Under the pieces are notes generated by a model that was given only the letters and a program-made list of their open reading frames with translations, did not search any database and had not been told where the DNA came from. Made by a program: the position numbers and the translations under genes. Below are positions 24,034-64,000 of a DNA stretch of 64,000 nucleotides, piece by piece; within the stretch, counting starts at the first letter, position 1, and each line of letters opens with the position of its first letter. The stretch comes from an uncultured Poribacteria bacterium (GTDB lineage: Bacteria > Poribacteria > WGA-4E > WGA-3G), in the NCBI GenBank assembly GCA_958296135.2, contig CATQHZ020000001.1, positions 1,984,001-2,048,000 on the forward strand, given 5' to 3'.

Positions 24034-24049
24034 GGAGAGGAGATGTCCA

Positions 24050-25543: not shown

Positions 25544-25562
25544 TTTGGTTTCCTAGTGAAGT

Positions 25563-26705
25563 TTAGAACGTCCAGTTTTCCAGTTCAGGCAAATCTTCTA
25601 CCTTGACATCCAGATGTTCCGCAAGTTGTTCAATCGAACATTGCCCTTGACGATACTTACTGAACGCGAGCTCCAGAAATCTGTAACCCAGATACGCTGC
25701 GCGAGTATTGTAGTAGCTGCCCCCACCAGAAGTTTTGGTACCGGGCTCTTTTTCTTTGCGACGTTCGTATGCCGCAGCCCACTCCTCTGTCCTCTGAACA
25801 TAATCGTCTTGGGCGAGGATGCCGCTGTTAACCAATTTCAGCAAGATGACAGGGCGGCTAACCTTGTATCGATTTGCCAAGGTTTCTATTGCATCGTCAT
25901 TGTAAATAGGAAAAGTGAGGCGGGTATCTAAGTCAAGGGATGGAACGAGAAATTCAGCGGCAAATTGGTTGCAAAAATCCTCAATGTCACCACCGCGGCT
26001 GAAATCTCCGCGTGTGATACCGTTCTCGCCGAGGAGGAGGTGTGCTAATTCATGAAAGAGCGAGAAAATCTGGCGGACAGCAGGTCTACTATTATTGAGG
26101 TAGATGACAGGAAATTCCTCATGGGCAAGGCAAAACCCATCAACGGAGTCGTCTTGGAACGACTCCTTAAACACGAAGGTGCCTTTCTCCTCGATGATGT
26201 CGCGCCAATTTTCGAGTGCCACCTTCGTGTTGCGCCATTCTAACTGCGTCTCAACGCTTACGTCCAGATATGCACGAGTTTTTCGCGCGAGCTCTGATGC
26301 TACGTCATCGGGCTGCGCTTGAAGCGCGCGAAAGATTTTCTTTCGCACCGGATTCACGCCGAGGTTCAATTCCATCAGTGAAATTTGCCGAGCGTAAGCC
26401 TGACGCAACAGAATATGCATCCGCGCGGAAAGCGGCGGAGTATCAGAACTCCGCATCGCAAGATTCCCCGCAATATCGGGTTCTTCGGGAGGTTCCGGAA
26501 AGAAAAAAATCGCGACCGGTCGCCGGTATTTATCCGCCAACTTTTCGAGTTGAACGTAAGTCGGCGCGCTGCCCCCGGACTCCCAATCAGAGAGAGTTGC
26601 GACACCTTTCTTGATAACTGCCGCGGCCTCTTCTAGGCTATATCCTGAGCGTTCTCGCGCCCATTTGATGATGGCGGGATTCATCCCCGGAATATATTCA
26701 GCCAT
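25563..26705 (-). CDS. XRE HTH plus ImmA/IrrE metallopeptidase
   Basis: N-terminal HTH (WARERSGYSL..LSDWESG); RQIFSLFHELAH (HExxH); EDFCNQFAAEFLVP. Confidence 0.88.
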   Translation of the reverse strand: MAEYIPGMNPAIIKWARERSGYSLEEAAAVIKKGVATLSDWESGGSAPTYVQLEKLADKYRRPVAIFFFPEPPEEPDIAGNLAMRSSDTPPLSARMHILLRQAYARQISLMELNLGVNPVRKKIFRALQAQPDDVASELARKTRAYLDVSVETQLEWRNTKVALENWRDIIEEKGTFVFKESFQDDSVDGFCLAHEEFPVIYLNNSRPAVRQIFSLFHELAHLLLGENGITRGDFSRGGDIEDFCNQFAAEFLVPSLDLDTRLTFPIYNDDAIETLANRYKVSRPVILLKLVNSGILAQDDYVQRTEEWAAAYERRKEKEPGTKTSGGGSYYNTRAAYLGYRFLELAFSKYRQGQCSIEQLAEHLDVKVEDLPELENWTF

Positions 26706-30622: not shown

Positions 30623-32077
30623 CTACCGTTCCCGCTCAGACACCAGCAAATCGAACGAATTGCTCTGCCATCCACCTTCCATGACAATATTATCCCGTGT
30701 TTCACGCAGGCGATTCACCATCCGCGCCTTCATGCGGCGGAGGACGTGCTTGTAACCGAGGTGCATCGCGAGGTTGTGTAACTCACCCGGGTCGCTCTGC
30801 ATATCGTAGAGTTCGTCCTCGCTATACGGATTGTAGACGTATTTCCAAGAACGCGTGCGCACCATCCTGACAGAGGCAAGCGTTGGCTCATAGCCGTGGA
30901 ATTCGGCGAATACATCATCAGGCCAGTCTGGCACCGTTTCGCCTTTCAGGAGCGGCACAATCGAGCTGCCGTCCAAATTATTAGGTATCTTCGCGCCGCC
31001 GATATCCAAAAACGTCGGCATCAAATCAACAAGATTCACAAATTCGTCACACGTCGTTCCCGGTGATGTCGCGCCCGGCCATCGAACGACAAGCGGAATG
31101 TGGTGCGTCTCCTCATACATGTGGAACCCTTTGTTGAAAAGGCGATGGCTGCCGAGCATATCACCGTGGTCGGTCGAAAAGATGACGATAGTATTTTCGG
31201 CCAAACCGTTCTCTTCAAGGCAGTTGAGAATGCGCCGGACCTGGGCATCGATGAAAGTGCAGAAGCCCCAATAGCAAGCGATGACTTTCTGCCAATCGGG
31301 CCAGGTGAGGTGGCTGGTGTTCCAGCGGAGCATCTCCTTTTGCTGGATGGACGGCTTGTTGATGAATTGCTCGTCAAAGTTACCCCAGCGTTCAACGTCA
31401 GCCGGATTATACATCGTATCGTACGGCGCAGGCACGGCGTAAGGGAAATGCGGTCCGAAAAAATTCGCGGCGAGCATAAAGGGTTGCGCGGAATTCGTAT
31501 ATCCATCGATTAACTCGATGGTTTTATCGGCTGTCCATGCCTCCATCGTGCGTTCTGCGGGGAGCGTCAGTCTGCCGTAAAACGGTGCCTCACCTCCCCA
31601 TTCAAGCGGCTGGACAGCGTCTCTGTCAATACGGAAGTCAATCCCTGCATCGCGGAGCCACTGGTGCCACTCACGATAGGGGTGCCATTTGTCGTAACCC
31701 CAGAATTCGGTGTCGCCTTCCTTGGCGAGGTGCCATTTACCGACGCAACCCACCTGATAACCGGCTTCCTTCAGCAGTTGCGGGTACGCCGGTTTGTCAA
31801 GGATCTGGTTTGCGAAAACGCCGTTGAAATTGCCCATGTTGGACAACTGCCCGTGGTTATGAGGGTAGAGTCCGGTGAGTAATGAACCGCGCGCCGGCGA
31901 GCAGAGCGCGAGGGGAGTATAGGCATTCGTAAACCGCATCCCCTGCGCGGCGATTTCGTCAACGGCGGGTGTTCTGCAAACTGGCGCGCCGTTGCAACTT
32001 AGCGAGTCGTAACGCTGCTGGTCTGTGAGGAGGAAGAGAATGTTGGGTCTGTTTTTATGAGTCATAGTTGTTCCCAT
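30623..32077 (-). CDS. Sulfatase
   Basis: TDQQR, CSPARG, GKWHL, TDHGD. Confidence 0.92.
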   Translation of the reverse strand: MGTTMTHKNRPNILFLLTDQQRYDSLSCNGAPVCRTPAVDEIAAQGMRFTNAYTPLALCSPARGSLLTGLYPHNHGQLSNMGNFNGVFANQILDKPAYPQLLKEAGYQVGCVGKWHLAKEGDTEFWGYDKWHPYREWHQWLRDAGIDFRIDRDAVQPLEWGGEAPFYGRLTLPAERTMEAWTADKTIELIDGYTNSAQPFMLAANFFGPHFPYAVPAPYDTMYNPADVERWGNFDEQFINKPSIQQKEMLRWNTSHLTWPDWQKVIACYWGFCTFIDAQVRRILNCLEENGLAENTIVIFSTDHGDMLGSHRLFNKGFHMYEETHHIPLVVRWPGATSPGTTCDEFVNLVDLMPTFLDIGGAKIPNNLDGSSIVPLLKGETVPDWPDDVFAEFHGYEPTLASVRMVRTRSWKYVYNPYSEDELYDMQSDPGELHNLAMHLGYKHVLRRMKARMVNRLRETRDNIVMEGGWQSNSFDLLVSERER

Positions 32078-32639
32078 TATCTTGATTCAGTTGTGCCGCG
32101 AGGGAGTGCCACCACCTATTTTTTGCATTAACGCGCAACAGATGCGTGCTGCCCGGGGCATCGTTCGCGCCTAAGCCGCGTTCAATAATTTGCGTGTGTG
32201 AATCTTGTTCTAGCTGCTTAGCAATTCTATTTTCAAGTCGTTCAGGCGAACGCAGGACAATGACGCTTACAATTTCCGCCGATTGGAGTTGCAAAAGAAA
32301 ATCGATGTTCCAGTGCAAAGTTTTGCCGCGCCTTGGGAGCAGATTACCGATGCCCAAGCCGCATTCAGTAAATCGGCGTATCATCTCGCCGCGAATTGCG
32401 TGGGGTGGCAAGTTTGCACTTCGCGCTGCGTGCCGAACGAGCCGCCGTGCTAGGGACATCGCGCCTTTCTCGGCGAGTGCCGAACCGACGTAGACATAGT
32501 CACCGGCGGGTAGGAAAATCGGTTTTCCCTTTTTGAAGCGTCCGAATCGGAGTTCGGTGTCTTCTGCGAGTCGGATGCGCAGGAGGTATGTTCCGGCCTG
32601 CGCATCCTCGCCGCTGACGGTGATGTCAGGAGTTTTCAT
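32055..32639 (-). CDS. GIY-YIG nuclease family protein (DUF123-like)
   Basis: GTYLL...YVYVGSA, RRLVRH, HWNIDFLL. Confidence 0.75.
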   Translation of the reverse strand: MKTPDITVSGEDAQAGTYLLRIRLAEDTELRFGRFKKGKPIFLPAGDYVYVGSALAEKGAMSLARRLVRHAARSANLPPHAIRGEMIRRFTECGLGIGNLLPRRGKTLHWNIDFLLQLQSAEIVSVIVLRSPERLENRIAKQLEQDSHTQIIERGLGANDAPGSTHLLRVNAKNRWWHSLAAQLNQDNGNNYDS

Positions 32640-32651
32640 GGGAGCACCGAT

Positions 32652-33251
32652 TCAACTTTCTGTTTGTTGCCACATCCGAAATCGGTTTCGCAACGCACTT
32701 AAAAGCCTATCCATGGATTTATCAATTTGCGCGATACGCGGGAGATTCATGGCGTTAACAAGGGCTTCCGTGTGCTCAATGCCTCCGGAAATTGGAACTA
32801 GTCCCGCGGCAAGAACCGCTTCTATCAGATGACGCTTGTAACGGTCACGCTCGCATTTCTGGTCGGGAGCCGGGCACCCTTTTCCCAAAACCGTTTTGAA
32901 TGCTTCCGAATCCAGGAGCAGCCACCGCTCAATATGCGGTTCGGGAATCGCGCAAATCACCAAGTCGGCAAAATTCGTAGAGATTGCTTGATCCATCTCC
33001 CTTTTTCGTGCTGAAAACCCAAGACAATTACTATCGGTACCGACGACAATCAGGTCAGGTAAAGGCTCCTTGTAGTGCCGTAAACCTTGTTGGTACAGTC
33101 TCAACTCAGTGATGACTTTTCCATGTCCGCCGCGAACACTATGGGCCCTGAGATTGATTTTAACATGGTATTTATCAGCAAACCGGTGGACCAAGGCCGT
33201 AAGAAAATCTTCATGGGCTTCGTCTTCGGCAAATAGGCTAATATTACGCAT
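32652..33251 (-). CDS. DUF4276-like (TOPRIM-type) protein partnered with an ATPase
   Basis: LFAED, GTDSN (DxD-like), PHIERWLLLD; overlaps the ATPase stop. Confidence 0.6.
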   Translation of the reverse strand: MRNISLFAEDEAHEDFLTALVHRFADKYHVKINLRAHSVRGGHGKVITELRLYQQGLRHYKEPLPDLIVVGTDSNCLGFSARKREMDQAISTNFADLVICAIPEPHIERWLLLDSEAFKTVLGKGCPAPDQKCERDRYKRHLIEAVLAAGLVPISGGIEHTEALVNAMNLPRIAQIDKSMDRLLSALRNRFRMWQQTES

Positions 33252-34533
33252 CAAAATCCCCCCGCACGATACGTCCGGAAATAGCCAAATCATCTTCGGC
33301 ATCCAACGCTGTCTGAATTTCCGATGCCTTCCAAAATTGCCCTACATGTGTCTTCGTGAAAGGTTCAATCTCGGTGGCACCGTTAACCTTGCGACAAAGG
33401 TATACAGAGTCAATAGGAATGAGATCCGGCAAAAGCGGTGAATGCGTTGTGACGATAAATTGGGTATCTTGGAGGATTCTGCGGGTTTCCAAAATCCGAG
33501 CAATCCGTTGAATACGACGCGGATGGATGCCGTTTTCCGGTTCCTCGAACCCGACAAGGACCGGCGGCTTTTTTGCACCGCTGAGTGCTAAAAGCCCTAA
33601 AATGCGGAGCGTGCCTTCCGATACGATTCGGGTGGAAACCAGTTTTTCGCCTTCACGAAGATCCAACTCAACTTGTCCCAACTTATTGACACTGACATCA
33701 ATCCCTGTTATTGATGGGATAATGGCGTGCAGCGATTTTTCAACGGCCTTGAACTGAGGTTCATTGAGGGCCCGTAAGGTATTGAGAAACGCTGCAAGGT
33801 CTTCCCCCATCACCCCCACGTGGTCGACCTCCTTCACAGGATTCGGGAGCCGCATTCGCTCCCGAGGTTCAAAGTAGTAGGTGAACCAGTTCGCCAATTC
33901 TTCCTGCATCGCAACGACATGTGGGTAGTGAGGCGGATAATGCGACATGGAAAGAATACTGTAGTCAAGATGCCGCTCATAATAGAGTGGATGCGCCTGT
34001 CCCTCCATCCGCAAATGCAGCCGGCCTTCAACTTGTTCCAAAAACGGCTTCCGTTTCCGATTCACCTCGCCTTTGGTATTCAGTGCAGTGAGATATTCGT
34101 CTGCCACCTGCAAAATACCCAATTTGGGGAGCATTTCAATCTCAATGCGATACCGCAGATACTGCTCACGCACGAATCGCTTTGAAACCGATTTGCTTCC
34201 CGTCCTTTCTTGAATTCGTTGATTGACAGTCTCAACAACCCGGGGCGATAACTGAACATCAACTTCAAGAGTGAACGCCACTGTCTCGCGTTCCAACAGG
34301 CTCTTGATGCCTTCGTGTCCAAAAGTGAATGACTCTAGGGGGTACCCTCGGTATGGCAAATCAAATGCCTCTTTTAACGTCCGGCAAGTGATTATCCGGG
34401 AGAGAAGTTGTAAGGCATCAAGAAAATTACTCTTACCTGATGCGTTAGGGCCGATGAGCACCGCAAGCGGGTCCAGATTCACCTCCACATCCGCCAGCGA
34501 TTTGAACCCCTGAATTTTGATTCGTTTCAGCAT
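33244..34533 (-). CDS. AAA_21/AAA_15-type ABC ATPase
   Basis: IQGFKSL, GPNASGKSN, SEGTLR, FEEPENGIHP, TTHSP. Confidence 0.88.
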   Translation of the reverse strand: MLKRIKIQGFKSLADVEVNLDPLAVLIGPNASGKSNFLDALQLLSRIITCRTLKEAFDLPYRGYPLESFTFGHEGIKSLLERETVAFTLEVDVQLSPRVVETVNQRIQERTGSKSVSKRFVREQYLRYRIEIEMLPKLGILQVADEYLTALNTKGEVNRKRKPFLEQVEGRLHLRMEGQAHPLYYERHLDYSILSMSHYPPHYPHVVAMQEELANWFTYYFEPRERMRLPNPVKEVDHVGVMGEDLAAFLNTLRALNEPQFKAVEKSLHAIIPSITGIDVSVNKLGQVELDLREGEKLVSTRIVSEGTLRILGLLALSGAKKPPVLVGFEEPENGIHPRRIQRIARILETRRILQDTQFIVTTHSPLLPDLIPIDSVYLCRKVNGATEIEPFTKTHVGQFWKASEIQTALDAEDDLAISGRIVRGDFDA

Positions 34534-48355: not shown

Positions 48356-48375
48356 TAGTGAAGGAGACAAAACCG

Positions 48376-49044
48376 TTGACACAATTTACCGATGAACTCA
48401 GACAATTCGCCGCCCCGATTTGGGAGGCAGATCTGCAGCACCCCTTCGTCCGCGGCATTGCCGATGGCAGCCTTCCGACAGAAAAGTTTAAGTTCTACCT
48501 CATTCAGGACTATCTGTTCCTATTGGACTATAGCCGTGTGTTTGCGCACGGCGTTATCAAGGCACCCGATGAGGCGACGATGGCACTCTTTTCACAACTG
48601 CTCAACGAAACCCTCAACACGGAGATGGATTTGCACCGCGGGTATTGCGAAAAATTTGGCATCTCCGCCGCCGAGATGGAGCAGGCACCGGTAGCCCCAA
48701 CGACGCATGCCTATACTCGGCATGTGCTGCATGTCGCACAGAGCGGCACGCTGGCAGCCCTTATCTCAGGTGTTTTGCCGTGCCAGTGGGGTTACGCCGA
48801 GATAGGCACAACGTTGGCACAGCAGGGAGGTTCGCCCGAACCGCTCTATCAAGAGTGGATAGAGATGTATGCCTCCGAGGAATTCCTCGCCTTGGGCAAG
48901 TGGTTGCGCAGCCTCCTGAACAAGTTGACAGCAGAGAGCGGTTCCGCCGAGAAAGCGCGGTTGAAGGAGCATTTCCTGCTCAGCAGCCGTTATGAGTATC
49001 TCTTTTGGGAGCAGGCGTGGACGCAGGAGACATGGCAGATTTAA
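48376..49044 (+). CDS. tenA: Thiaminase II / aminopyrimidine aminohydrolase TenA
   Basis: HPFV, FYLIQDYLFL, LPCQWGY, YQEWIEMY, YEYLFW; TTG start after AAGGAG. Confidence 0.9.
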   Translation: MTQFTDELRQFAAPIWEADLQHPFVRGIADGSLPTEKFKFYLIQDYLFLLDYSRVFAHGVIKAPDEATMALFSQLLNETLNTEMDLHRGYCEKFGISAAEMEQAPVAPTTHAYTRHVLHVAQSGTLAALISGVLPCQWGYAEIGTTLAQQGGSPEPLYQEWIEMYASEEFLALGKWLRSLLNKLTAESGSAEKARLKEHFLLSSRYEYLFWEQAWTQETWQI

Positions 49045-54220: not shown

Positions 54221-55048
54221 CTACAAACTTTGGCGCGCGATGCCATAAAAATGATTCGTCGGGCCGTGCCCGTGCCCAATATCCAACGCGTGGCGGATGG
54301 CGTTCGTGATATACGCCTTCGCCGCGCGGACCGCCTCCGTGAGCTCCTTGCCGTGCGCGAGCTGCGTCGCGATGGCGGCGGAATAGGTGCAACCCGTGCC
54401 GTGTGTATTCTGCGTATTGATGCGCTCCGCCTCAAAAAAGTGCCACTCTCCACCGAAATATAGCACATCTGTCGCCTGCGCACCGCCGAGATGGCCGCCT
54501 TTTACCAGCACCGCCTCGCATCCTAACGCCGCAATAATCTGCGCCGCGGCTTTAGCATCCGCCGTAGTCTGGATTTCCTGTTGCGCCAGCAATTCTGCCT
54601 CGTAAATGTTCGGTGTGATGAGCGTGGCAAGCGGAATCAACTCCGTCTTAAGACTCGCAATTGCCTCTTCTTTTAATAAAGGAAACCGACTCTTGGAGAT
54701 CATCACCGGGTCTACGACGATAGGCGCGCGCTTAGAAATCGCGCCCGCGGGAGACTGAGAGATGTGCTGACGCAACTTCCGCGATACCGCCGCCACAATC
54801 CCCGATGAAGAGAGCATCCCGGTCTTGACGCTAGACACGTCAAAGTCGGTGAAGACAGCATCCAGTTGTGCCTCAATGAGGGGAATCGGCAGATCGAACG
54901 CGCTCGTCACCGCTACCGTATTCTGCGCCGTGACAGAGGTGATTGCGGACATCGCGAATCCCCCGTTTGCGGAGATGGCTTTGATGTCCGCCTGTATCCC
55001 GGCACCGCCGCCGGAGTCTGAACCTGCGATGGTTAAGATTTGTTTCAT
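54221..55048 (-). CDS. thiD: Hydroxymethylpyrimidine/phosphomethylpyrimidine kinase
   Basis: TIAGSDSGGGAGIQADIK, TAQNT, KTGML, HGTGCT, GHGP. Confidence 0.95.
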   Translation of the reverse strand: MKQILTIAGSDSGGGAGIQADIKAISANGGFAMSAITSVTAQNTVAVTSAFDLPIPLIEAQLDAVFTDFDVSSVKTGMLSSSGIVAAVSRKLRQHISQSPAGAISKRAPIVVDPVMISKSRFPLLKEEAIASLKTELIPLATLITPNIYEAELLAQQEIQTTADAKAAAQIIAALGCEAVLVKGGHLGGAQATDVLYFGGEWHFFEAERINTQNTHGTGCTYSAAIATQLAHGKELTEAVRAAKAYITNAIRHALDIGHGHGPTNHFYGIARQSL

Positions 55049-55050
55049 CG

Positions 55051-55638
55051 TTATCCTTCAGCGTCCGGCCGCGCGATGTGAAAGTCCACTTCGTGCTCGT
55101 CGTAAGCATCAAAAATTGCTCGGCAGAACGCCATCATCTTGTCATCCTGAATTGAGACCGCGGTTTCATACATTCTGATGAAGAAGCGTTTCCCGGCCTC
55201 AGACTGGGAATAGTTCTTCTTCATCAGGTTGTGTTGAGAACAGAGCGTTTGAGCGTTTTTAAGGGTGTTGGTGCCGCCCTTATCTTTCGGGATGATGTGG
55301 TCTACGGTGAGGGTAATCCCATCTTCGCGTCCGCGTCCACAGACAACACACCGATAACTATCTCGTGCCAAAATCGCTTCTTTATCCCGTGCCGAGAACT
55401 CAAGTAGTTCAACTTCGTGAACGTAGTCCGGATCATATTTGTAGACACCGGTTCTCACCTTAATCAGTTGACCTTTCTGATGGAGTTGTCTGATAACCCG
55501 CCACGGATCGCGCGGTGGGTTGTCATGTTCTTCAAGGTACTGCTCCGTTACCCAATCAACAACTGGACCATGCGACAGCTCTTGATTCGGATGATTCTCA
55601 AAATACTCCATGACAAGTCCCTCAATCGTTTTCGCCAT
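55051..55638 (-). CDS. HNH endonuclease (candidate restriction enzyme)
   Basis: RDSYRCVVCG, VDHIIPKDKGGTN...LCSQHN; overlaps the MTase stop. Confidence 0.85.
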   Translation of the reverse strand: MAKTIEGLVMEYFENHPNQELSHGPVVDWVTEQYLEEHDNPPRDPWRVIRQLHQKGQLIKVRTGVYKYDPDYVHEVELLEFSARDKEAILARDSYRCVVCGRGREDGITLTVDHIIPKDKGGTNTLKNAQTLCSQHNLMKKNYSQSEAGKRFFIRMYETAVSIQDDKMMAFCRAIFDAYDEHEVDFHIARPDAEG

Positions 55639-56422
55639 GTGCATTCTCCTTTTTTTCAAACAGACGCAGCTGCTCAGTTGCCTGACAGACCCGCTCCTTA
55701 GCGAGTTTGCAGTAGCCTTCGTCAACTTCGATCCCGATGCCTTTGCGCTTGTTTAAATGCGCCGCGACTAAGGTGGTGCCGCTGCCCATGAACGGATCGA
55801 GAACCGTATCGTGGACGTAACTGAAAAGTTTGATGCACCGACGCGGCAGTTCAACCGGAAATGGCGCGGGGTGCCCGATCCGCTTCTTGCTCTCACCGGG
55901 AAACGTCCAGAGCCCATTTGTCCACTCCATGAACTCCTTCTTATTCATATCCGATTGCCCGCTCCCGCTCGTTTTCTTCCATTGCTCCTTGTAGAGAATG
56001 ACAATTAGTTCAACCGGTGCAATGACGTAAGGCGCGGATGCCTTCAGCCACGAGCCCCAAGCGGTTCGTCGGGAGATGTTGCCCTCGTTCCAAATAATCG
56101 TGGAGTGGTATTGAAACCCGATATCCGTTGCGAGTTTGGTTAGGTCAGCACCGACGTGCTTCTGTCCCCCTTTATTTTTATCCAGAGGTATGTTGAGACA
56201 GAAGCGGCCATCGGACTTGAGCCACTGGAAGCATCGGGAAAACCACGCCTCGGAAAAGGCGAGGTACTCGGTGTAAGAGAGTGCATCGTCATTTGAGTTG
56301 TATTTGATGTCAACGTTATACGGAGGCGATGTGACAATGAGATCAACGCTGTTTTCCTTGATTGCCCGGGTTGTAAGCACGTTCTCGTTGATTATCGCGG
56401 CGTGTTCGTCGGTAAAAAACAT
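55622..56422 (-). CDS. Beta-class N4-C/N6-A DNA methyltransferase
   Basis: IVTSPPY (motif IV), HPAPFP, VLDPFMGSGTT (motif I). Confidence 0.92.
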   Translation of the reverse strand: MFFTDEHAAIINENVLTTRAIKENSVDLIVTSPPYNVDIKYNSNDDALSYTEYLAFSEAWFSRCFQWLKSDGRFCLNIPLDKNKGGQKHVGADLTKLATDIGFQYHSTIIWNEGNISRRTAWGSWLKASAPYVIAPVELIVILYKEQWKKTSGSGQSDMNKKEFMEWTNGLWTFPGESKKRIGHPAPFPVELPRRCIKLFSYVHDTVLDPFMGSGTTLVAAHLNKRKGIGIEVDEGYCKLAKERVCQATEQLRLFEKKENAHGEND

Positions 56423-56488
56423 AATTGTTTTTCCGCTGTGTAGGTAGTAGCGACTTCAAAGTTGATAAGCACTACTAGTTTCATGGGA

Positions 56489-57346
56489 CTATTCGCCCCT
56501 TTCAATTAGCTGCTTGAAATCCGGGACGAAATGCTCAAACGACTTCACCTTGTCGCTCTCCTCAAGAATCGCCGAGGTGAGGACATAAGTGCCATCAAGC
56601 TCGTTTTCTGCGATAGCCCTTTCCTTCCTAGCAAGAAACGTGCTCGCCAAGAACTCGCCCCTATCAAGCGTGACAAAATAGACCTTGATGTGCGCTGTCA
56701 CTTTACTTGCCAGAAGTTTGGATCTCCAATAGGAGGCTTTGGCAATTCGCCATCCTGACGTGACTTCGGATAAAATGACAGCGATGACCTTGGAATTTTT
56801 CGGGTCGTAAACGACAGTATCAACATCCGGTAGGTAGAAACCGAATTTGCCGAAATCTACCGACAAATTCCGGTTAACAGCCACCAATTCTGGAGACAGG
56901 CTTGCGCCTCGCTCTAATTCTCGGAGGCTGATTACCTTTATGCCGTGTGCCTCTATCGGTTCAGTGAGAAGATGCTGAATGCGTTCTTCAAACCGTTTCC
57001 CTTTCAAAGCACGCCATCTCAGCAAATCGGCCTCTCGCAGTTCCGGTCCGACATCCTCAAGGATAACCGCTTCTTCAAGACCTCCGCACAAAACCACTTC
57101 CCCATAGTGTTCTATGAGGTCGTCCATAACGTGGCTTGTGTATGCGGCTCTCCTGAAATCGACGACATCCCGCGCTATTAGGGTATCCACGAGGACAGGG
57201 TCGGGGGTATATCCTATCTCGTAGAGGGTATCAGACAACAGGTTTCTCATTCCATCAAGAGGCCTGCCCCCATGACGCGGTGTCGGGATAGGACCTCGTG
57301 CTGTCGGGGCGGCTACGAGGGGTTTGAGTCCAGGTGGTTGTTTCAT
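56489..57346 (-). CDS. BsaWI-like type II restriction endonuclease, catalytic motif apparently degenerate
   Basis: RNLSVDFGKFGFYLPDVD..YDP..KVIAVI, YWRSKL, HIKVYFV, LDGTYVL, EESDKVK.FEHF. Confidence 0.65.
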   Translation of the reverse strand: MKQPPGLKPLVAAPTARGPIPTPRHGGRPLDGMRNLLSDTLYEIGYTPDPVLVDTLIARDVVDFRRAAYTSHVMDDLIEHYGEVVLCGGLEEAVILEDVGPELREADLLRWRALKGKRFEERIQHLLTEPIEAHGIKVISLRELERGASLSPELVAVNRNLSVDFGKFGFYLPDVDTVVYDPKNSKVIAVILSEVTSGWRIAKASYWRSKLLASKVTAHIKVYFVTLDRGEFLASTFLARKERAIAENELDGTYVLTSAILEESDKVKSFEHFVPDFKQLIERGE

Positions 57347-57349
57347 AAC

Positions 57350-59206
57350 TTAGGCATCTCCGTTGTTGCGAAGATACTCACGGCCGGCATCGGTGATTTC
57401 CCAGAGGCCTTGTGGAGAATCGCGTTTCATTAAACCCTTACGCACCAATTCCCACCGCATGCTATGGGTTCGGTTTTTCCAATACGGCTGCCCACTCGCC
57501 AAGCACTCTAGGTCTTTTGGCCCGAGCTCATCTACCATTAACAGGCGAATCCTCTTGAGCACTACGTGAGTTGCTGCAAAGCCATTGAGTTGCTCTAAGG
57601 CCTTTAAAATAGGCAACTTATAACGACTTCGCGGAAGAGGGACCTGCCGCGTTAACATCCCGGTGATGTCTGGCGGCACCTGAACGCCGTTTTGCTGCTC
57701 AAAGTCCGCGACGCTTTCATAATCGTTATGAAATGACGCGATGATATCCGCGCCCATGTCTCTAGCAACCGTTAGGTCTGCTTTGGCTTTGTCCCATTCC
57801 CTTAGGCGCAGCCACACTTTGCCGCGATTGCAGTAGGCATGGGCATAATTGGGATTGAGTGCTATCGCCGTGGTATAGTCTGCAATAGCCGTGTCAAAAT
57901 CGCCTTTTATGCCGTAAGCAACGCCGCGGTTGTTATAGGCCTTGGCATGATCGGGATTGAGTGCTATCGCCGTGTTAAAGTCTTGGATAGCCGTGTCAAA
58001 ATCGCCCTTGGTGCTATAAGCGTTACCGCGGTTGTTATAGGCATCGGCAAACTGGGGATTGAGTGCTATCGCCGTGTTAAAGTCTTTGAGGGCATTGTCA
58101 AAATCCCCTTTTTTGTCGTAAGCAATGCCACGGTTGTTATAGGCCTCGGCATAATTGAGATTGAGTGCTATCGCCGTGTCAAAGTCTTTGATAGCATTGT
58201 CAAAATCGCCCTTGGTGCTATAAGCGTTACCGCGGTTGTTATAGGCATCGGCAAGCTGGGAATTGAGTGCTATCGCCGTGTTATAGTCCTGAATGGCGTT
58301 GTCAACATCGCCTCTTTCGCCATAAGCAACGCCGCGGTTGTTATAGGCATCGGCATCATCGGGTTTGAGTTCTATCGCCGTGGTATAGTCTGCAATAGCA
58401 TTGTCAAGTTCGCCTTTTTCGTTGTAAGCAATGCCGCGGTTGTTATAGGCCTCCGACATATCGGGTTTCTGTGCCAAAGCCTCGGTATAATGCCCCACGG
58501 ATTTGTCATACCACTTCCGTTTTTCTGCCCGCGTTTTCGCTGAATCTCCTCGATTTTGACAGGTCATCCCTTTATGAAACTGCGTGTAGGCACTTTCATG
58601 GATGCTCCGGTTCGTGATAAATCCATGGAGGTCATTGTAGATAGTTTCGGTGGAAATGTCGTGGTGCTTCCGCAGGTAGTTTAGCATAGACTGTTTAAGT
58701 TCTTTTGGGACAGTCACTACCGCGTCCGGTTCAACAAAACCTTTGGATGCTTGCACGAATATGCTTTTCTGGGATTCCACGCGATTAATCGTCTTCGGCG
58801 GTTTTTCGACCTCGTAGTCGTCCGATTCCTTTTCTAGCAAGATAACCCGGCCGACTTTGTCACGCTCTCCATCACAAGCAAAGAAAAGAGCAATGAGGTA
58901 GTCAGTCGTAAAGTCAATTAGGTTGGTTTTCCCGCCATAGTGTTGGAGTGCTGTCAGGATCTCCAAATCGTTGGCGGTTTCGCGGGTATACTTTCTCGCC
59001 TCGTCCAGAATTTCTTTTTGGACGATATCTATCTCGAAACTTTTCTCCTCAATATCTTTCACATAGTCGCGATAGAGGGTTGAAGAGACTTTCTCATAGT
59101 ATTCAGGCTCGCCGCGAAAGATGTAGTCACCGCTAGCCGATTTCTCAGCTATCTCGCAGATCTTTTTCAGAACGCAGTTGAGTTCGTTTTGTTGTCGTGT
59201 GTTCAT
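57350..59206 (-). CDS. FRG domain plus TPR repeats plus C-terminal Mrr_N-like winged helix
   Basis: YIFRGE, LQHYGGKTNLIDFT, ALFFAC, NRVESQKSIF; about 7-8 AYNNRG-type TPRs; PILKAL...GLWEITDAGREYL. Confidence 0.85.
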   Translation of the reverse strand: MNTRQQNELNCVLKKICEIAEKSASGDYIFRGEPEYYEKVSSTLYRDYVKDIEEKSFEIDIVQKEILDEARKYTRETANDLEILTALQHYGGKTNLIDFTTDYLIALFFACDGERDKVGRVILLEKESDDYEVEKPPKTINRVESQKSIFVQASKGFVEPDAVVTVPKELKQSMLNYLRKHHDISTETIYNDLHGFITNRSIHESAYTQFHKGMTCQNRGDSAKTRAEKRKWYDKSVGHYTEALAQKPDMSEAYNNRGIAYNEKGELDNAIADYTTAIELKPDDADAYNNRGVAYGERGDVDNAIQDYNTAIALNSQLADAYNNRGNAYSTKGDFDNAIKDFDTAIALNLNYAEAYNNRGIAYDKKGDFDNALKDFNTAIALNPQFADAYNNRGNAYSTKGDFDTAIQDFNTAIALNPDHAKAYNNRGVAYGIKGDFDTAIADYTTAIALNPNYAHAYCNRGKVWLRLREWDKAKADLTVARDMGADIIASFHNDYESVADFEQQNGVQVPPDITGMLTRQVPLPRSRYKLPILKALEQLNGFAATHVVLKRIRLLMVDELGPKDLECLASGQPYWKNRTHSMRWELVRKGLMKRDSPQGLWEITDAGREYLRNNGDA

Positions 59207-59254
59207 CTTCTCTCCTCAGTGATAGTCAAAAATGTGCCCCTAATAGGGACGATA

Positions 59255-59551
59255 CGAATAAACTCTCCGGAGTTGCAGCGTCTTCTTCTGCAAGTTGACT
59301 GCCTCCATCATTGAGTTTCGGGTTTTGACGCGCGGGTAAACAGCGCGGCGTTTCTTGTCGAAGCGGTGCTGCGCTTCGGCGGGTCCGAGTGTCTGGAATC
59401 GTTCACGAACCCTTGCAAAAATAGGATACCACAAAACGCTCAAATTTGCAACGAAAAACGTAATGATAACGTTAGTTTACTACAAAAAAGCGGTGTATGT
59501 CAAGAAAAAAAGATGAGCGAATTCGGATGTGGCGCGTTTCAGGTTCTGGAA
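59255..59551 (-). repeat. Array repeat copy 1: leader A plus tandem promoter block
   Basis: Matches 63708-64000 throughout and 61517-61668 from GTTCACGAAC onward. Minus strand has TTGACA-18-TAAACT, the palindrome AACGT-N7-ACGTT, and TTGCAA-17-TATCCT. Confidence 0.9.
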
Positions 59552-59680
59552 CTATTCCCGCGTCAGCATTTCCGCGAGGTCTGGCGGCACCTGAACATCG
59601 TTTTTCTGCTCAAAGTCCGCGACGCTTTCGTAATAGTTATGAAATGAGGCGGTGATATCCGCGCCTTTGGCTTTGGCTAT
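59552..59680 (-). pseudogene. Isolated 3' end of an FRG-TPR gene
   Basis: IAKAKGADITASFHNYYESVADFEQKNDVQVPPDLAEMLTRE*, homologous to the C-termini of both FRG-TPR genes; out of frame with the upstream ORF. Confidence 0.85.
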
Positions 59681-60108
59681 GTCGCTTGCAATACCGCAAT
59701 CGTTTCTTGTTGCTTTTGGACGCTCTCCTGCAGTTTGCTCAACTTTTTATAAAGAAAACCGCCCACCGCCAAAACCAAGGGGACTAGCGCAATCATGAAG
59801 TTTCGCTGATCTGTGATACGCTGGCTTTGCCCGCGGATTTCGCCCTTCATCTCGCTCACCTCGGCTCTCGTCTCACTCAGTTCAGTCCTTACTGCGCTGA
59901 GTTCAACTTTCGTCTCGCTGAGTTCAGTTTTCATCGCGCTGAGTTCAGCTTTCATCGCGCTGAGTTCGGTTTTTATTTCGCTGAGTTCAGTCTTCACCTG
60001 CGCTGCGGCGGCGTTCCCGATGGCTTTAATCTCCTCTCCGCTGAGCTCGCCGAACGTCGGCGCATTCCAGAGCAGTAGTGCCACGAAAACAATCACATAG
60101 ACTCTCAT
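59677..60108 (-). CDS. Signal peptide plus heptad coiled coil plus TM protein
   Basis: AAGGAG RBS; about 7 KTELSAM-like heptads (21-bp repeats); C-terminal TM segment. Confidence 0.7.
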   Translation of the reverse strand: MRVYVIVFVALLLWNAPTFGELSGEEIKAIGNAAAAQVKTELSEIKTELSAMKAELSAMKTELSETKVELSAVRTELSETRAEVSEMKGEIRGQSQRITDQRNFMIALVPLVLAVGGFLYKKLSKLQESVQKQQETIAVLQAT

Positions 60109-60211
60109 TTCTGTCTCCTTTAGTAGTCGCGTCCAAAGGATCTTTGTATAACGCTGCGTCATTGCTTGCTAAATCGGTTTTGCGCAGCCAATTCACCGAT
60201 TCTGTCACCGG

Positions 60212-61276
60212 TTATTCGGCTAAATGCTGCAAGAATGTCTCCAGGTCTGGAACCTGTCCGGCGACAGGAAGTAGCTGCTTGAGGCGTTCCACCTCTGTGA
60301 CGTTTTCAAAGGTGGGGCGCAAGGCCTGCACGACTGTCGGGTTGAATCGCGATTCAAGGATAACCATAAGGCCGTCAATAGTTGCACTTCGTTTGCCTTG
60401 TTCGCGGGCTTGTGCCGCTTGTTCACGGGCTTGTGCTGCTTGTTCGCGGGCTTGTTCGCGGGCTTGTTCGCGGGCTTGTGCTGCTTGTTCACGGGCTTGT
60501 GCCGCTTGTTCACGGGCTTGTGCCGCTTGTTCCACAACTTGCGATACGCGCTGATTCGCTTCCGCCATGAGGGCGGCTTCCTGCTCCGCGAAGCGGCTCT
60601 GAAAGAGACTTTGAAGATAAGGTGAATGTTCCACGAGATCCCTCCGAATAAAACGATTAAGTTGTTCCTCACTATAGCCAGCACTGCCAAATACACCCAG
60701 CAACGCCATTAAGTCTGCCAGAAGGGCATCCGGCACCGGCGCAGCCGCTGTGGCACGAACACACTCACGCAACCAAGCATCGGCATCCATCCCCGGCGGC
60801 GGCTGCATCAGCGGCGTGAAAGGCAACAACGCCGGTTCCTGCGCCTCCAACACCGAAACACCGTCTATCTCACTCAACCGCAGCACCTTATACCGCAAGG
60901 AAAAGTGATGCGCCTCACCCCACTGGCACGCATACCCACCCAGATCCTGTCGCCCAGCACGCGGATGCAAATAGATGACACTGCAATACACCGGCACCTC
61001 ATGTTCCGAAATGAGATAGCCGCAATACCCCGTCATCCGGAAGTGCATCTCTTTCTCGCGGCTGTCGTGCAATTGCACTTCGGTATGTGCTATCGCCTCT
61101 TCGCCGTTGATAAGCATTCGCACCGTGCTATCGCCACGCCGCACCCACATCCGCTGCTGTTCCGTGTCCAGTCTGCTGAGCACCTTGATGTCGGATGTCT
61201 CCAACAGGTACTTCAGGATGGGTTCACCAAGTTCCAGTAGCAAATGTTTGGCTGCACTATCGTAAGGCGTTCGCAT
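60212..61276 (-). CDS. Rpn/YhgA-like PD-(D/E)XK nuclease with repetitive C-terminus
   Basis: YDSAAK, RRGDS...HTEVQ, RMTGY, VIYL, LLPFTPLM; AQAREQA repeats at about 60398-60532. Confidence 0.72.
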   Translation of the reverse strand: MRTPYDSAAKHLLLELGEPILKYLLETSDIKVLSRLDTEQQRMWVRRGDSTVRMLINGEEAIAHTEVQLHDSREKEMHFRMTGYCGYLISEHEVPVYCSVIYLHPRAGRQDLGGYACQWGEAHHFSLRYKVLRLSEIDGVSVLEAQEPALLPFTPLMQPPPGMDADAWLRECVRATAAAPVPDALLADLMALLGVFGSAGYSEEQLNRFIRRDLVEHSPYLQSLFQSRFAEQEAALMAEANQRVSQVVEQAAQAREQAAQAREQAAQAREQAREQAREQAAQAREQAAQAREQGKRSATIDGLMVILESRFNPTVVQALRPTFENVTEVERLKQLLPVAGQVPDLETFLQHLAE

Positions 61277-61516
61277 TAAATTATACCTCAATTGGTTTCG
61301 TCATGTTAAGCCGTTTTTTACGGCACATTTTTTACACAGCGGCAACCGATAGTGCTTCCTGATGTGGGATGATACCCTCAGTAGGCGAGGCGTAAGTCTT
61401 CCGCACTGCTATGCTAGCCGCCCTAGCGCAGGACGCAAAAATTTCCTGCCTCCATTGTGCCTGCAGTGGTACCCTTCCGTGAGTCTAAGATGTCTCCGCT
61501 CCTTTCGGCAGCAAAC

Positions 61517-61668
61517 GTTCACGAACCTATGTCAAGAATAGGATATCACAAAACGCTCAAATTTGCAACGAAAAACGTAATGATAACGTTAGTTTACTAC
61601 AAAAAAGCGATTGATGTCAAGAAAAAAAGACAAACGAATTCGGAAGTGGCGCGTTTCAGGTTCTGGAG
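61517..61668 (-). repeat. Array repeat copy 2: tandem promoter block
   Basis: GTTCACGAAC...AACGTAATGATAACGTTAGTTTACTACAAAAAAGCG..TGTCAAG...TTCAGGTTCTGG, matching 59401-59551. Confidence 0.9.
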
Positions 61669-63036
61669 CTATTCCCGCGTCAGCATTTCCGCGAGGGCTG
61701 GCGGCACCTGAACGCCGTTTTGCTGCTCAAAGTCCGCGACGCTTTCATAATCGTTATGAAATGACGCGATGATATCCACACCTTTGTCCCTGGCAACCGT
61801 TAGGTCTGCTTTGGCTTTGTCCCATTCGTGGAGGTGCATCCACGCTTCGCCGCGATTGCAATAGGTTTCGGCATCATCGGGATTGAGTTCTATTGCCGTG
61901 TTAAAGTCTTTGATGGCGGTGTCAAAATCGCCTTTTCGGTGGTAAGTAACGCCGCGATTGTTGTAGGCATCGGCATAATTGGGGTTGAGTTCTATCGCCG
62001 TGGTATAGTCTGCAATAGCCGTGTCAAAATCGCCCTTTTTGAGGTAGGCCACCCCACGATTATAAGAGGCCAGAGCAAGATTTGGTTTGAGTTCTACCGC
62101 TCTTGCAAAGTCGCTGACGGCCTGGTCGTATCTGCCTATTCCAACGTAGATGGTGCCTCGGTTATTGTAGACCTCGGCAGCATCAGGTTTCAAGTTTATC
62201 GCTGTGCTAAAATCACTGATGGCCTTGTCCTCCTCACCTATGCTGGCGTAAACGTTGCCGCGATTGTTATAGGCTTCGACATAATCGGGTTTCAACTTCA
62301 GAGCCTCAGTATAATGCGCGATGGATTTTTCATAATTCGCGTTATTTTGACACCGCAAACCGCTACAAAGTTCCTCAAAGGCCGTGTGATAGATTCCTTG
62401 TATCCTAATAAATCCATGAAGATCGTTGTAGATGGTTTTTGCGGAGATATTGTGGAACTTTCGCAGATAATCCAGCATAGGAATTTTGATGGATGCCGGC
62501 ATCGTCACAACATCTTCCGGGTCAAATTCGACAAATCCTTGGCGAGGTTGAACAAATACACTTTTCTGGGCCATCACGCGATTAAGTGGTTTGCTCGGTT
62601 CGCGAGGGATGTCAATTAGTTCTTCTAGATCGTCCCTTCTCCGCAAGATAATCCTGCCATCCTCATCATGGGAGCCGTCGCATGCGAAGAAGAGGGCCAC
62701 ACGAGAGTCGCTCGTAAACTCAATTAGATTGGTTGCTCCCCCATGAAAATGAAGTTCAGTTAGGATTTCAAAATCGCTGTCGGCGGCGATTCCAGGGAGA
62801 TGTTCTCTCACCGTCTCCAGCAATTTATCTTGAATGGCCTCTGCATCAAAGTAAGATCCCACACTCCTCAGGTGTTGGTTGTAGAGGGTCGACGAAACTC
62901 TCGGATAGTATGCAGGTTCACCGCGGAAAATGTAGTCAACGCTGGCGGACTTGTCCTCGATTTTCCGGATGATCTTCCGCACCTTGCCGAGTGCGTTTTG
63001 GTGTGAGGGGTTCATCATTTTCATAAAGGTCACCAT
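61669..63036 (-). CDS. FRG domain plus TPR repeat protein
   Basis: YIFRGE, LHFHGGATNLIEFT, ALFFAC, NRVMAQKSVF; about 5-6 TPRs; ends VPPALAEMLTRE. Confidence 0.85.
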   Translation of the reverse strand: MVTFMKMMNPSHQNALGKVRKIIRKIEDKSASVDYIFRGEPAYYPRVSSTLYNQHLRSVGSYFDAEAIQDKLLETVREHLPGIAADSDFEILTELHFHGGATNLIEFTSDSRVALFFACDGSHDEDGRIILRRRDDLEELIDIPREPSKPLNRVMAQKSVFVQPRQGFVEFDPEDVVTMPASIKIPMLDYLRKFHNISAKTIYNDLHGFIRIQGIYHTAFEELCSGLRCQNNANYEKSIAHYTEALKLKPDYVEAYNNRGNVYASIGEEDKAISDFSTAINLKPDAAEVYNNRGTIYVGIGRYDQAVSDFARAVELKPNLALASYNRGVAYLKKGDFDTAIADYTTAIELNPNYADAYNNRGVTYHRKGDFDTAIKDFNTAIELNPDDAETYCNRGEAWMHLHEWDKAKADLTVARDKGVDIIASFHNDYESVADFEQQNGVQVPPALAEMLTRE

Positions 63037-63092
63037 ATCTAGCGTGCAAAGGCTACTGATGCAGGTTAATTGGAAAGTTGCCTTCGCTCCAC

Positions 63093-63668
63093 TTAAAGTT
63101 GTCTGGATGGGGACAAGTTTATCCTATTTGAATCTGGTATCCCCACAAAGTCTTCTTTGGGCTGAACAATCTTTTCTGCTTCCGCTTTCACGCTTCCGTC
63201 TACAACGTTGGATTTAGACAGATACTTTTGGAAGGCGGATACAGTTTCTTGCTCGTTTCCAAGAGTGATGGAATAGAACTTCCGATTTCTCCATGAAACA
63301 TGCGTTTTGTAAGACAGATAAAAGTCCCACGTTTTGCCATTAGTCAGAACGCCAAGGTCAATTCCCTGCTGGAAAACATAGCGGGCTATCTGCCTTTGAG
63401 ATGCCTCGTCCGATTCAATTTTGACACGCCACCGTTTGCACTCAACGAACACCAGAGGTTTTGCCTCATGTTGTAAGGCATAGTCAACCTTGCCATTTGC
63501 AGCCCTCCGTTCTGGGAGAACCTCTAAAGTCTCCAAATTGCTGTCATTCCAGCCTAGGGCCCTAAGGATAGGTAGAACGACAAACTGTTTCGTCGCGAAT
63601 TCGTCAAAGTCGCGGGCTTCAATGGTTCCCGTAAACTGCACAATGTGAGCGATGGTTTGTTCCAGCAT
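63093..63668 (-). CDS. Stand-alone HsdR_N-like PD-(D/E)XK nuclease domain protein
   Basis: EFATKQFVVLPILRALGW, KVDYAL, FVECKR, LTNGKTW; GAGG RBS. Confidence 0.8.
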   Translation of the reverse strand: MLEQTIAHIVQFTGTIEARDFDEFATKQFVVLPILRALGWNDSNLETLEVLPERRAANGKVDYALQHEAKPLVFVECKRWRVKIESDEASQRQIARYVFQQGIDLGVLTNGKTWDFYLSYKTHVSWRNRKFYSITLGNEQETVSAFQKYLSKSNVVDGSVKAEAEKIVQPKEDFVGIPDSNRINLSPSRQL

Positions 63669-63707
63669 GTTTCCTCTTCGTATCAGCAATTGCCTGCCTG
63701 AACGGGC

Positions 63708-64000
63708 CGAATAAACTCTCCGGAGTTGCAGCGTCTTTTTCTGCAAGTTGACTGCCTCCATCGTTGAGTTTCGGGTTTTGACGAGCGGGCAAACGGCGCG
63801 GCATTTCTTGCCGAAGCGGTGCTGCGCTTCGGAGGGTCCGAGTGCCTGCAACCGTTCACGAACTCTTGCAAGAATAGGATATCACAAAATGCACAATTTT
63901 TCAACGAAAAACGTAATGATAACGTTAGTTTACTATAAAAAAGCGGTGTATGTCAAGAAAAAAAGACCTGCGAATTTAGATGTGGCGCATTTCAGGTTCT
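63708..64000 (-). repeat. Array repeat copy 3: leader A plus tandem promoter block (runs off the window)
   Basis: Near-identical to 59255-59548. Confidence 0.9.

Follow-up and report, generated by a model that had tools for sequence, protein, structure and literature searches.

Integron arrays are one-directional and attC-punctuated, with promoterless cassettes expressed from one common promoter, and plant NLR clusters hold tandem immune-receptor paralogues whose number rises and falls through unequal crossing-over and gene conversion. Here we describe a locus that recalls both of these systems, in a genome of Candidatus Poribacteria, which are sponge symbionts. The stretch of DNA analysed (the window; 64,000 nt, G000:C1:1984001-2048000) ends within a putative anti-phage island that separates thiE from thiD, and the elements in question are the repeated junctions between the genes of this island, each with a promoter-like block, a conserved leader, or both. 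G000 denotes this genome, G001 and G002 are the other two genomes of its genus, and L015 coordinates refer to a stretch of G000 that spans the island and runs beyond the window end.

Chromosomal defence islands, or core defence hotspots, lying between conserved core genes are described in the accessible parts of reports on P. aeruginosa (PMC10250203) and E. coli (PMC10121019). According to the accessible text of PMC9503650, the FRG domain belongs to the ADP-ribosyltransferase (ART) superfamily and is proposed to be an antiviral effector, possibly an NADase. In addition, the accessible portion of 10.1101/2023.05.02.539157 describes Rpn (recombination-promoting nuclease) toxins with intragenic C-terminal antitoxins.

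Based on the organisation of the locus, we hold with moderate confidence that an anti-phage defence island occupies the thiE-thiD interval, and that it contains duplicated FRG-TPR units whose junctions are kept alike by recombination. The most unusual component is the genus-wide promoter-leader, an undescribed cis element.

Island structure and mosaic junctions

We identified an island of ~11 kb, from window position 55051 to window-equivalent 66088, which is bounded by thiE and thiD and in which all genes are co-oriented with the thiE-thiD operon strand. An earlier note on this DNA had supposed that the array probably continues past the window end, and it does: a further 2.1 kb of array, comprising one more FRG/TPR gene and a last junction block, is followed by thiE and then rsmB. 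It continues by that one unit only: the island is bounded and holds four junction blocks (A, B, C and D). The GC content of the island is 0.46-0.52 (0.56 across the Rpn-like gene) versus 0.53-0.59 in the flanks.

Three of the island genes are FRG-TPR paralogues, FRG being Pfam PF08867. Unit 1 (57350..59206, minus strand; 618 aa) combines FRG (Pfam, 6.5e-16), TPR families, a C-terminal tail and Mrr_N (5e-8), and matches PADLOC PDC-S15 at 3.9e-19. Unit 2 (61669..63036, minus strand; 455 aa) has FRG (3e-8), TPR families and a tail at 61669-61797, with a PDC-S15 match at 2.3e-10, and unit 3 (603 aa; L015 10005-11816), which lies beyond the window, matches PDC-S15 at 3.8e-16. The FRG domains of the three are 49-56% identical at the amino-acid level, and the in-register 102-nt TPR DNA copies number 6, 4 and 9 in the three paralogues, six of them being the complement of unit 1. 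This architecture suggests an effector joined to a repeat sensor, the TPR array being the presumed sensor part. Long antisense open reading frames (ORFs) on the plus strand lie opposite the TPR arrays (window 57839-58543, 234 aa, and 61828-62619, 263 aa; L015 10170-11624, 484 aa); these most likely just follow from the way TPR codons repeat, and terminator-like hairpins there repeat at a 102-nt period.

The repeated junctions reported in the earlier note are real. Within the window, 59416-59677 and 61533-61794 are 91% identical over 262 nt, as are 59255-59547 and 63708-64000 over 293 nt. A BLAST search of the whole genome with 59207-59680 recovered copy C (92% over 423 nt, reaching window-equivalent 64130), copy B (90% over 282 nt) and a partial copy D (86% over 265 nt) 1.8 kb past the window. 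Leader A (59207..59400, minus strand) matches R1, a covariance model of the leader, at 59255-59356 with 108.7 bits, and its core GGAGGCAGTCAACTTGCAG is followed by a small hairpin with a T-run (59236-59250) and a ribosome-binding site (RBS). Promoter block A (59401..59551, minus strand) contains P1 (59474-59503, TTGACA-18-TAAACT), the palindrome AACGT-TATCATT-ACGTT at 59457-59473, and P2 (59423-59451, TTGCAA-17-TATCCT with TG upstream). Promoter block B (61513..61668, minus strand) also has P1 (61591-61620), the palindrome and P2, and its homology to A and C ends just past P2. Leader C (63669..63853, minus strand; R1 match 63708-63809, 109.3 bits) is 93% identical to leader A, and promoter block C (63854..64000, minus strand; P1 63927-63956, P2 63876-63904) is cut by the window end. 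Block D (L015 11817-12088) comprises P2 and a leader, without a tail. The same P1 is present in blocks A, B and C; P2 was found by scan in block C only (TTGAAA-17-TATCCT with TG before), and in A and B it was read from the sequence by eye. The palindrome and the two sigma70-like promoters are as the note described them, the promoters as consensus matches only, and in that sense every island unit comes with a promoter-like block. Two occurrences of the 19-nt leader core fall within the window, where 0.02 would be expected.

Sliding identity in 60-nt windows across the four junctions resolved three segments of different extent. Segment 1, the last ~130 nt of the FRG/TPR ORF together with P1, the palindrome and P2, is common to A, B and C at 82-98% per window. 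Segment 2, the leader, is common to A and C at 87-97% per window and to D, from just past P2, at 85-100%. Segment 3, which takes in the 3' flank of the leader, the small hairpin with its T-run, the RBS and the first ~110 nt of the FRG ORF, is common to A and D at 72-92%, and past it the identity of the homologous ORFs drops abruptly to 32-52% per window. The breakpoints are sharp: A versus B drops after P2, A versus C at the 3' flank of the leader, and A versus D ~110 nt into the ORF. By part, identity is 93-94% for leaders, 87-92% for promoters (A versus B and C, 90-92%) and 87-94% for tails. The repeat is thus a mosaic junction between tandem FRG-TPR genes and not a dedicated cassette site. 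Since the junctions are 87-94% identical as against 49-56% for the FRG domains, and since the breakpoints are sharp, the junctions point to duplication and gene conversion.

The tail peptide reads as the earlier note gave it, ...ESVADFEQ.N.VQVPP.LAEMLTRE followed by the stop codon. Its standing as a special part of the repeat fell away: it is simply the conserved C-terminus of a duplicated FRG/TPR gene family, is a C-terminal domain common to a dozen TPR proteins of G000 (12 or more loci), and has DNA matches spread across other Poribacteria genomes. No Pfam family corresponds to the tail domain. The orphan tail that the note had placed in the middle cassette was confirmed at 59552..59680 (minus strand). 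It consists of 42 codons plus a stop codon, without a start codon, and tblastn puts it at 79% identity with the tail of FRG2. Its frame is shifted by one base from that of the coiled-coil gene upstream, and it falls in no minus-strand ORF of at least 40 aa; although non-coding, it is 91.5-92.8% identical to the functional tails at the nucleotide level. Junctions B and A form 281-nt direct repeats around a 1.83-kb segment (61511 down to 59678) that holds the Rpn-like and coiled-coil genes. Both entry of this segment by junction-duplicating recombination and its replacement of a fourth FRG/TPR gene body fit the arrangement, and both histories use the junction as a recombination substrate.

We also searched for thiD and thiE in 40 relatives, 38 outside the genus and 2 inside. 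In 23 of the 38 genomes outside the genus, thiE is followed directly by thiD, with anything from an overlap to a gap of 142 bp between them; the remaining 15 have the two genes on separate contigs or at a great distance, or gave no match for thiD. Only the three genomes of the genus have an island at this place, with a thiE-thiD gap of 11.0 kb in G000, 10.5 kb in G002 and ~5.3 kb in G001. Mapping by tblastn and ORF reading gave, for G001, the order thiE, HsdR_N fused to Mrr_N, an unknown ORF, leader, FRG-TPR-Mrr_N, methyltransferase (MTase), HNH and thiD. The first half of the G002 island runs thiE, two unknown ORFs, leader, HsdR_N fused to FRG-TPR (765 aa), leader and FRG-TPR, and the second half a TPR-only gene, a different N6_N4 MTase, BsaWI-like, HNH, a small ORF and thiD. 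FRG/TPR units therefore number one in G001, two plus the TPR-only gene in G002, and three plus the orphan tail in G000; the Rpn-like and coiled-coil genes are found in G000 only, and the BsaWI-like gene in two of the three genomes. All three species share the core order HsdR_N, FRG/TPR, MTase, HNH, thiD. Because the thiE-thiD gap is occupied in all three genomes and the core order is the same, the island was already in the genus ancestor, and unit number, domain fusions and some of the cargo vary. A defence-type locus whose content differs between relatives, as foreseen in the note, is what we find, the differences among the three lying in unit numbers and in the Rpn-like, coiled-coil, BsaWI-like and MTase genes; a free cassette array is not, given that core order.

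Two side observations concern these relatives. The thiE gene of G001 (L027 12347-13108) matches in two pieces around an internal repetitive insert of ARLKSAPTEG-like units that has no counterpart in G000 or G002. In G002, GC-rich palindromic units (...GGGACAGGCCC...CGCCCTACG...) lie in the island between a tail and the next promoter (L026 ~12500-13050), and the same GGGACAGGCCC/CGCCCTACG units occur upstream of another leader copy (G002:C1 near 812000); they may be a REP-like element of this lineage.

The promoter-leader family and the origin of the junctions

The leader is ~230 nt long and has a core, obtained from an alignment of 11 copies, that is nearly invariant over 32 distinct copies: GGAGGCAGTCAACTTGCAG, a variable insert (9-30 nt in the copies checked) and then CTGCAACTCCGGAGAGTT. 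The prediction includes three nested arm pairs, with a hairpin of variable sequence upstream of the core; such variable hairpins occupy two positions in all. The covariance model found 11 copies in G000, 9 in G001 and 15 in G002. At E 0.001 it found none among the 38 other relatives, and a search of five genomes from other genera gave only two weak rows (E 0.21 and 0.36). An exact-pattern scan for the core found 14 loci among named genome records, 13 of them in two Candidatus Poribacteria metagenome-assembled genome (MAG) records and the fourteenth in a Christensenellales MAG, taken as a chance match; the same scan of metagenome contigs found 0 loci. All 35 copies are in sense orientation upstream of an ORF. 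An ORF of at least 70 aa follows each of the 30 copies with a fetched locus, within 80 nt in 25 of them, and of 20 downstream proteins scanned 17 had Pfam matches and 3 had none. The families represented are HerA/DUF87, AAA_15/AAA_21 (2), PLD plus SNF2 (2), Sacsin-type (3), HATPase_c_3, ParB_N, Dcm (2), PAPS reductase, HsdR_N with or without N6_Mtase (2), FRG/TPR and ParA-like. The note's idea of a portable promoter was supported to the extent that the promoter-leader precedes unrelated defence genes at six other G000 loci. Of 30 copies, 22 have an extended -10 at a distance of 79-255 nt upstream of the leader core, and the operator-like word A[CT]GTT[AG]T[CT]A, to which the palindrome belongs, accompanies 7 of 30 versus a shuffle mean of 0.2 and maximum of 3.

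Several identities for the leader were tried and set aside. Over L015 1-13000, a range that includes leaders A, C and D, Rfam 15 gave 0 matches at E 1, and a thiamine pyrophosphate (TPP) riboswitch or other Rfam family was rejected. A leader peptide from an upstream ORF through the core was also rejected: many copies have no start codon (ACGGAGG, GCGGAGG), the insert changes in length by non-multiples of three, and the 3' block stands in different frames. Nor is the element the same as the leader of a tnpB gene in this genome, where the sequence differs. No antisense or trans copy of the core was found in G000, where 11 of the 12 sites with three or fewer mismatches are the known sense copies. 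The twelfth (C1:288858-288876, 3 mismatches) is diverged and was not reported by the covariance model. By eye, the 5' boxes (GGTTCGTG... and CACTCGGAC) have no consistent long-range pairing partner in the core, and GGTTCGTG[AG][AC] occurs 52 times in the genome against ~40 expected by our own estimate, which does not make it a motif of the genome at large. FRG units 1 and 3 each have, between leader and RBS (59236-59250; L015 11846-11860), the 6-bp hairpin GTCCCTATTAGGGGC then ACATTTTTGA; the GTCCCTATTAGGGGC hairpin is kept in the orthologous leaders of G001 and G002 and may act as a weak attenuator.

In a maximum-likelihood tree of 30 leader copies, most fall by locus into sets of orthologues that span the three species. 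All island copies belong to a single clade (100/99). Within it, the G002 island has two leaders that pair as sisters (100/94), even though different G000 copies match their 3' flanks, and tandem leader copies at another locus also cluster by genome. These groupings bear on the most probable of the rival explanations, an old tandem duplication without continuing recombination, in which purifying selection accounts for the likeness of the junctions and ordinary gain and loss for the differences between species. It is consistent with the core gene order conserved in three species, with the orthologous sets at other loci, and with a near-invariant core, which implies strong constraint. We nevertheless consider it unlikely. 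The orphan tail, which is beyond protein-level selection, has stayed as close to the live tails as reported above; there is an abrupt drop in identity between units 1 and 3 at ~110 nt into their homologous ORFs; the pair of G002 leaders groups together despite different flanks; and the spacer positions of the promoter blocks are conserved as well, at 87-92%. The orphan tail, the ORF-internal breakpoint and the G002 sister leaders are the reasons for which we favour duplication with gene conversion of neighbouring junctions.

The distribution of the leader might instead suggest a small mobile or copy-prone element, of the miniature inverted-repeat transposable element (MITE) or outward-promoter kind, that was seeded before defence genes, the island repeats then being several separate insertions. 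It would account for multiple, similar copies confined to one genus, and tandem double or triple copies do occur at two other loci. On the other hand, the copies showed neither terminal inverted repeats nor target duplications nor fixed outer ends, all 35 stand in sense orientation upstream of an ORF, the orthologous sets imply no recent movement, and the island repeat includes coding sequence on both sides. We regard this explanation as improbable.

Even less probable, in our view, is a site-specific, integron-like cassette system in which the element is the site of a recombinase encoded elsewhere. The array is co-oriented, each ORF is immediately preceded by an element of ~100 nt whose inverted-repeat arms flank a variable centre, and the same element precedes unrelated defence genes. 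The earlier note saw no integrase, and this holds on a wider view: the integron integrase model TIGR02249 had 0 matches at E 0.001 in G000 (94.7% complete), and no integrase or transposase family matched at E 1e-8 among the 41 largest ORFs of window 1-55000. In addition, the element sits between promoter and gene at scattered single-gene loci, its copies are orthologous across species, and the homology blocks within the island have three different extents instead of one fixed site. By eye, the leader arms (AACTC/GAGTT, GGAG/CTCC, TTGCAG/CTGCAA) do not seem to fit the consensus of attC core sites. Finally, repeats made or collapsed by mis-assembly can be dismissed almost entirely, for although the Logan short-read contigs (four runs, one sample) break at each repeat and bridge no junction, the copies differ by 6-13% and have distinct flanks, every unique segment is present in those contigs at a depth similar to the flanks with zero base substitutions and only one- or two-base insertion differences, related arrays lie at the same locus in two other genomes, and the window sits on a 5.0-Mb contig. 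The few Logan-contig joints listed lie in TPR repeats with a shorter side of 21-35 letters and are uninformative on deletions or circles.

Under duplication with recombination between junctions, unequal crossover and gene conversion would keep the junctions 87-94% identical as the gene bodies drift. The same process would change the number of sensor units, and it may have left the orphan tail where the Rpn-like and coiled-coil segment now sits between direct repeats. The promoters would drive each unit and would probably read through to thiD. The leader would most likely be a common control input of the defence genes of the genus, acting through a bound protein or RNA. The accordion proposed in the earlier note is in this way partly supported: the locus appears to behave like an accordion of sensor units in which the junction is both promoter carrier and recombination tract. 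The mosaic, the sharp breakpoints and the 281-nt direct repeats support the claim that the repeat is a recombination arm; its extension to cassettes that are freely shuffled does not stand, as leader copies elsewhere are orthologous and stable.

Several points weigh against our reading. The comparison within the genus is limited to three genomes. The leader family appears to be old and stable, and not freely shuffled, because its copies group as orthologous sets across species, and the three G000 island leaders form a grade and not a clade. Part of the likeness of the junctions may stem from purifying selection acting on promoter, leader and tail, and not from conversion. Promoter-like sites across the region show no excess (13 versus 10.5 +/- 3.3 in shuffles). 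With regard to leader structure, 94.3% of cells pair over 16 pairs in three helices and the 32 distinct copies, versus 93.9% when shuffled (64/500 shuffles reach this), and the minimum free energy z-scores of 12 leaders (-1.16 to +1.34) are no better than those of shuffles. Four pairs have double changes (18/500 shuffles), and sliding the partners reduces pairing to 26-46%. Taken together, support for a structured leader RNA is weak; the pattern, in which invariant blocks and complementary arms go with inserts that differ in sequence and length, fits an RNA hairpin with a free tip and, equally, a DNA or RNA site recognised by a protein.

A broader proposal, which we offer tentatively and think doubtful as it stands, is that the junction has a dual purpose: one genus-specific switch for unrelated defence systems and, at the same time, a built-in recombination substrate for sensors, set amid thiE-thiD transcription that feeds thiD. 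If this were true, the switch would cover FRG-TPR, restriction-modification (R-M), HerA, AAA_15/21, PLD-SNF2, Dcm, ParB-like and other genes, and FRG-TPR sensors that multiply, swap their 5' ends and capture cargo would amount to a bacterial form of birth-and-death evolution of immune receptors. If transcription through the island feeds thiD, silencing or sloppy deletion of the island would be costly. A defence island appears to have been fixed in a biosynthetic operon for the lifetime of the genus without visible mobile-element machinery. Two open questions are touched here, namely the coordination of many defence systems in bacteria and the origin of new sensor specificities. A common promoter-leader seems to stand before a dozen unrelated defence genes in one lineage, and at thiE-thiD the same conserved tract marks the breakpoints of putative duplication, conversion and cargo capture. 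Should the leader be a regulatory input, it would provide a handle for switching the whole defensome; should it not be, the locus would still be a clean case of concerted evolution in bacterial immune-gene clusters.

Other genes of the island and its surroundings

The Pfam searches support the labels HNH, MTase, BsaWI-like, FRG/TPR/Mrr_N, FRG/TPR and HsdR_N that the genes had been given in the earlier note, and the defence-type families in the island are HNH, N6_N4 MTase, RE_BsaWI, HsdR_N, Mrr_N and FRG (PDC-S15). The HNH endonuclease gene (55051..55725, minus strand; likely start near 55644, MHMAKTIEG...) matches Pfam HNH at 6e-10 and HNH_5 at 2.7e-9 and PADLOC REase_II at 5e-8. Its stop codon ends 2 bp ahead of the thiD start, exactly where the array had been said to end, and its orthologues in the same place are 84% (G001) and 64% (G002) identical. 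Next to it are an N4/N6 DNA methyltransferase (55622..56422, minus strand; Pfam N6_N4_Mtase 3e-48, PADLOC MTase_II 1e-97), which is 95% identical to its G001 orthologue and replaced in G002 by a different N6_N4 MTase of 437 aa, and a BsaWI-like restriction endonuclease (56489..57346, minus strand; Pfam RE_BsaWI 4e-17). The G002 orthologue of the latter is 50% identical and matches RE_BsaWI at 2e-35; tblastn gave no match to this gene in the G001 island locus. These adjacent methyltransferase and endonuclease genes, of which MTase and HNH are kept in G001 and RE and HNH in G002, look like a Type II R-M-like set. The HsdR_N-domain protein (63093..63668, minus strand; Pfam HSDR_N 9e-8) probably starts at the ATG at 63668, and its ORF is open upstream into the leader up to 63851. 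Because HsdR_N is fused to FRG/TPR in G002 and to Mrr_N in G001, and such fusions join different partners across the three species, HsdR_N and Mrr_N appear to be functionally linked to FRG-TPR.

Between junctions A and B, the small coiled-coil protein (59677..60162, minus strand; 161 aa, stop codon 59677-59679) has hydrophobic N- and C-terminal stretches and 21-nt tandem repeats. Pfam gives coiled-coil noise only for it, and the gene has no other nucleotide match in the genome. The Rpn-like candidate (60212..61291, minus strand) has an N-terminal domain with D54/E71/Q73, a long helix with 21-nt repeats and a C-terminal helical domain. It is preceded by an upstream region of its own (61292..61433, minus strand; 142 nt) that is common with a paralogue, ORF and upstream region together being a 77% copy of C1:3967885-3969005. 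There are 26 Rpn-like matches in the genome, at about a dozen other places and some to the C-terminal part only, and a protein search also showed Rpn-like homologues of 80-83% identity in further assemblies. The Rpn label of the earlier note is favoured by the invariance of D54, E71 and Q73 in the alignment and by one homologue of 89 that has DUF4351. It is disfavoured by the lack of any Pfam or NCBIfam match, by the failure of Rpn or PDDEXK family models to match the protein or 18 homologues, and by weak fold matches: for an AF2 model with a pLDDT of 89, the best Foldseek rows were Cap4, EcoT38I, EcoO109I and McrC (E 0.019-0.36), and VIA gave NucS (2vld_B; Z 6.2, root-mean-square deviation 3.0, 99 aligned). 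A PDB sequence and profile search for Rpn membership gave nothing decisive. We therefore file the gene as an Rpn-like candidate, unproven as such. Beside a full-length Rpn-like match, C1:1187474-1189152, 2999239-3000986 and 1040252-1041565 each have one to three extra C-terminal matches of ~70 residues, which recall the C-terminal antitoxins reported for Rpn proteins. The 21-nt (7-codon) tandem repeats, at 59832-59989 in the coiled-coil gene and 60376-60563 in the long helix of the Rpn-like gene, could be length-variable.

The core flanks are thiD (phosphomethylpyrimidine kinase; 54221..55048, minus strand; Pfam Phos_pyr_kin E 6e-93) downstream and thiE (L015 12089-12769, beyond the window) on the other side. 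A TenA/THI-4 family gene lies at window 48358-49044, 5 kb from thiD, so that more thiamine-related genes stand near the split operon. A second defence-like cluster (window 14389-26705) includes a 998-aa ORF without a Pfam match, DUF6602, a Uma2 endonuclease-like gene, a 1052-aa N6_N4 methylase, an SDH-type protease and a helix-turn-helix plus IrrE/M78 regulator. At window 32055-34533, an AAA_21/AAA_15 ATPase beside a DUF123 gene forms a typical two-gene defence pair, with no leader copy near.

Comparison with known systems

The Rpn-like family resembles Rpn toxins, as far as the accessible portion of the report cited above describes them, in being multi-copy, with a variable C-terminal domain, some C-terminal-only matches, invariant D/E/Q residues and one homologue with DUF4351. 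It differs in matching no Rpn or PDDEXK model and in the weakness of its nuclease fold matches (Foldseek E >=0.019; VIA Z 6.2), and a toxin with an intragenic antitoxin may serve as a lead for this gene. The likeness to PADLOC PDC-S15 extends to the FRG domains of all three paralogues; here, unlike in that entry, FRG is fused to 4-9 TPRs, to a family-specific C-terminal domain and, in one unit, to Mrr_N, and is linked to HsdR_N. A limited literature search turned up no experimental work on the FRG-TPR-Mrr_N/HsdR_N-type architecture.

Like integron arrays, the island is one-directional, with a partly palindromic ~100-nt element with a variable centre before each ORF. It is unlike them in that no IntI was found, the element follows the promoter and is probably transcribed as a leader, its copies are dispersed and are orthologues between species, the blocks of the repeat vary in extent and include coding sequence, and each unit has a promoter-like block (consensus matches only) of its own. 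The likeness to defence hotspots, going by the accessible parts of the two reports, lies in several defence-type genes between two conserved housekeeping genes, with content that differs between related genomes. The differences are that the site here is inside the thiE-thiD operon, that all genes are co-oriented and no integrase or mobile-element gene was found, and that content varies mainly by duplication and rearrangement of one sensor family whose units are parted by the promoter-leader junction.

Plant NLR clusters offer a further parallel in their tandem effector plus repeat-sensor genes. Here the unit number is 1, 2+1 or 3 plus a relic, the TPR copies number 6, 4 and 9, and identity tracts are mosaic. 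The thiE-thiD island differs from such clusters in being bacterial, in having FRG, of the ART superfamily, as its putative effector, and in that its conserved tract is an intergenic promoter-leader and not coding repeats.

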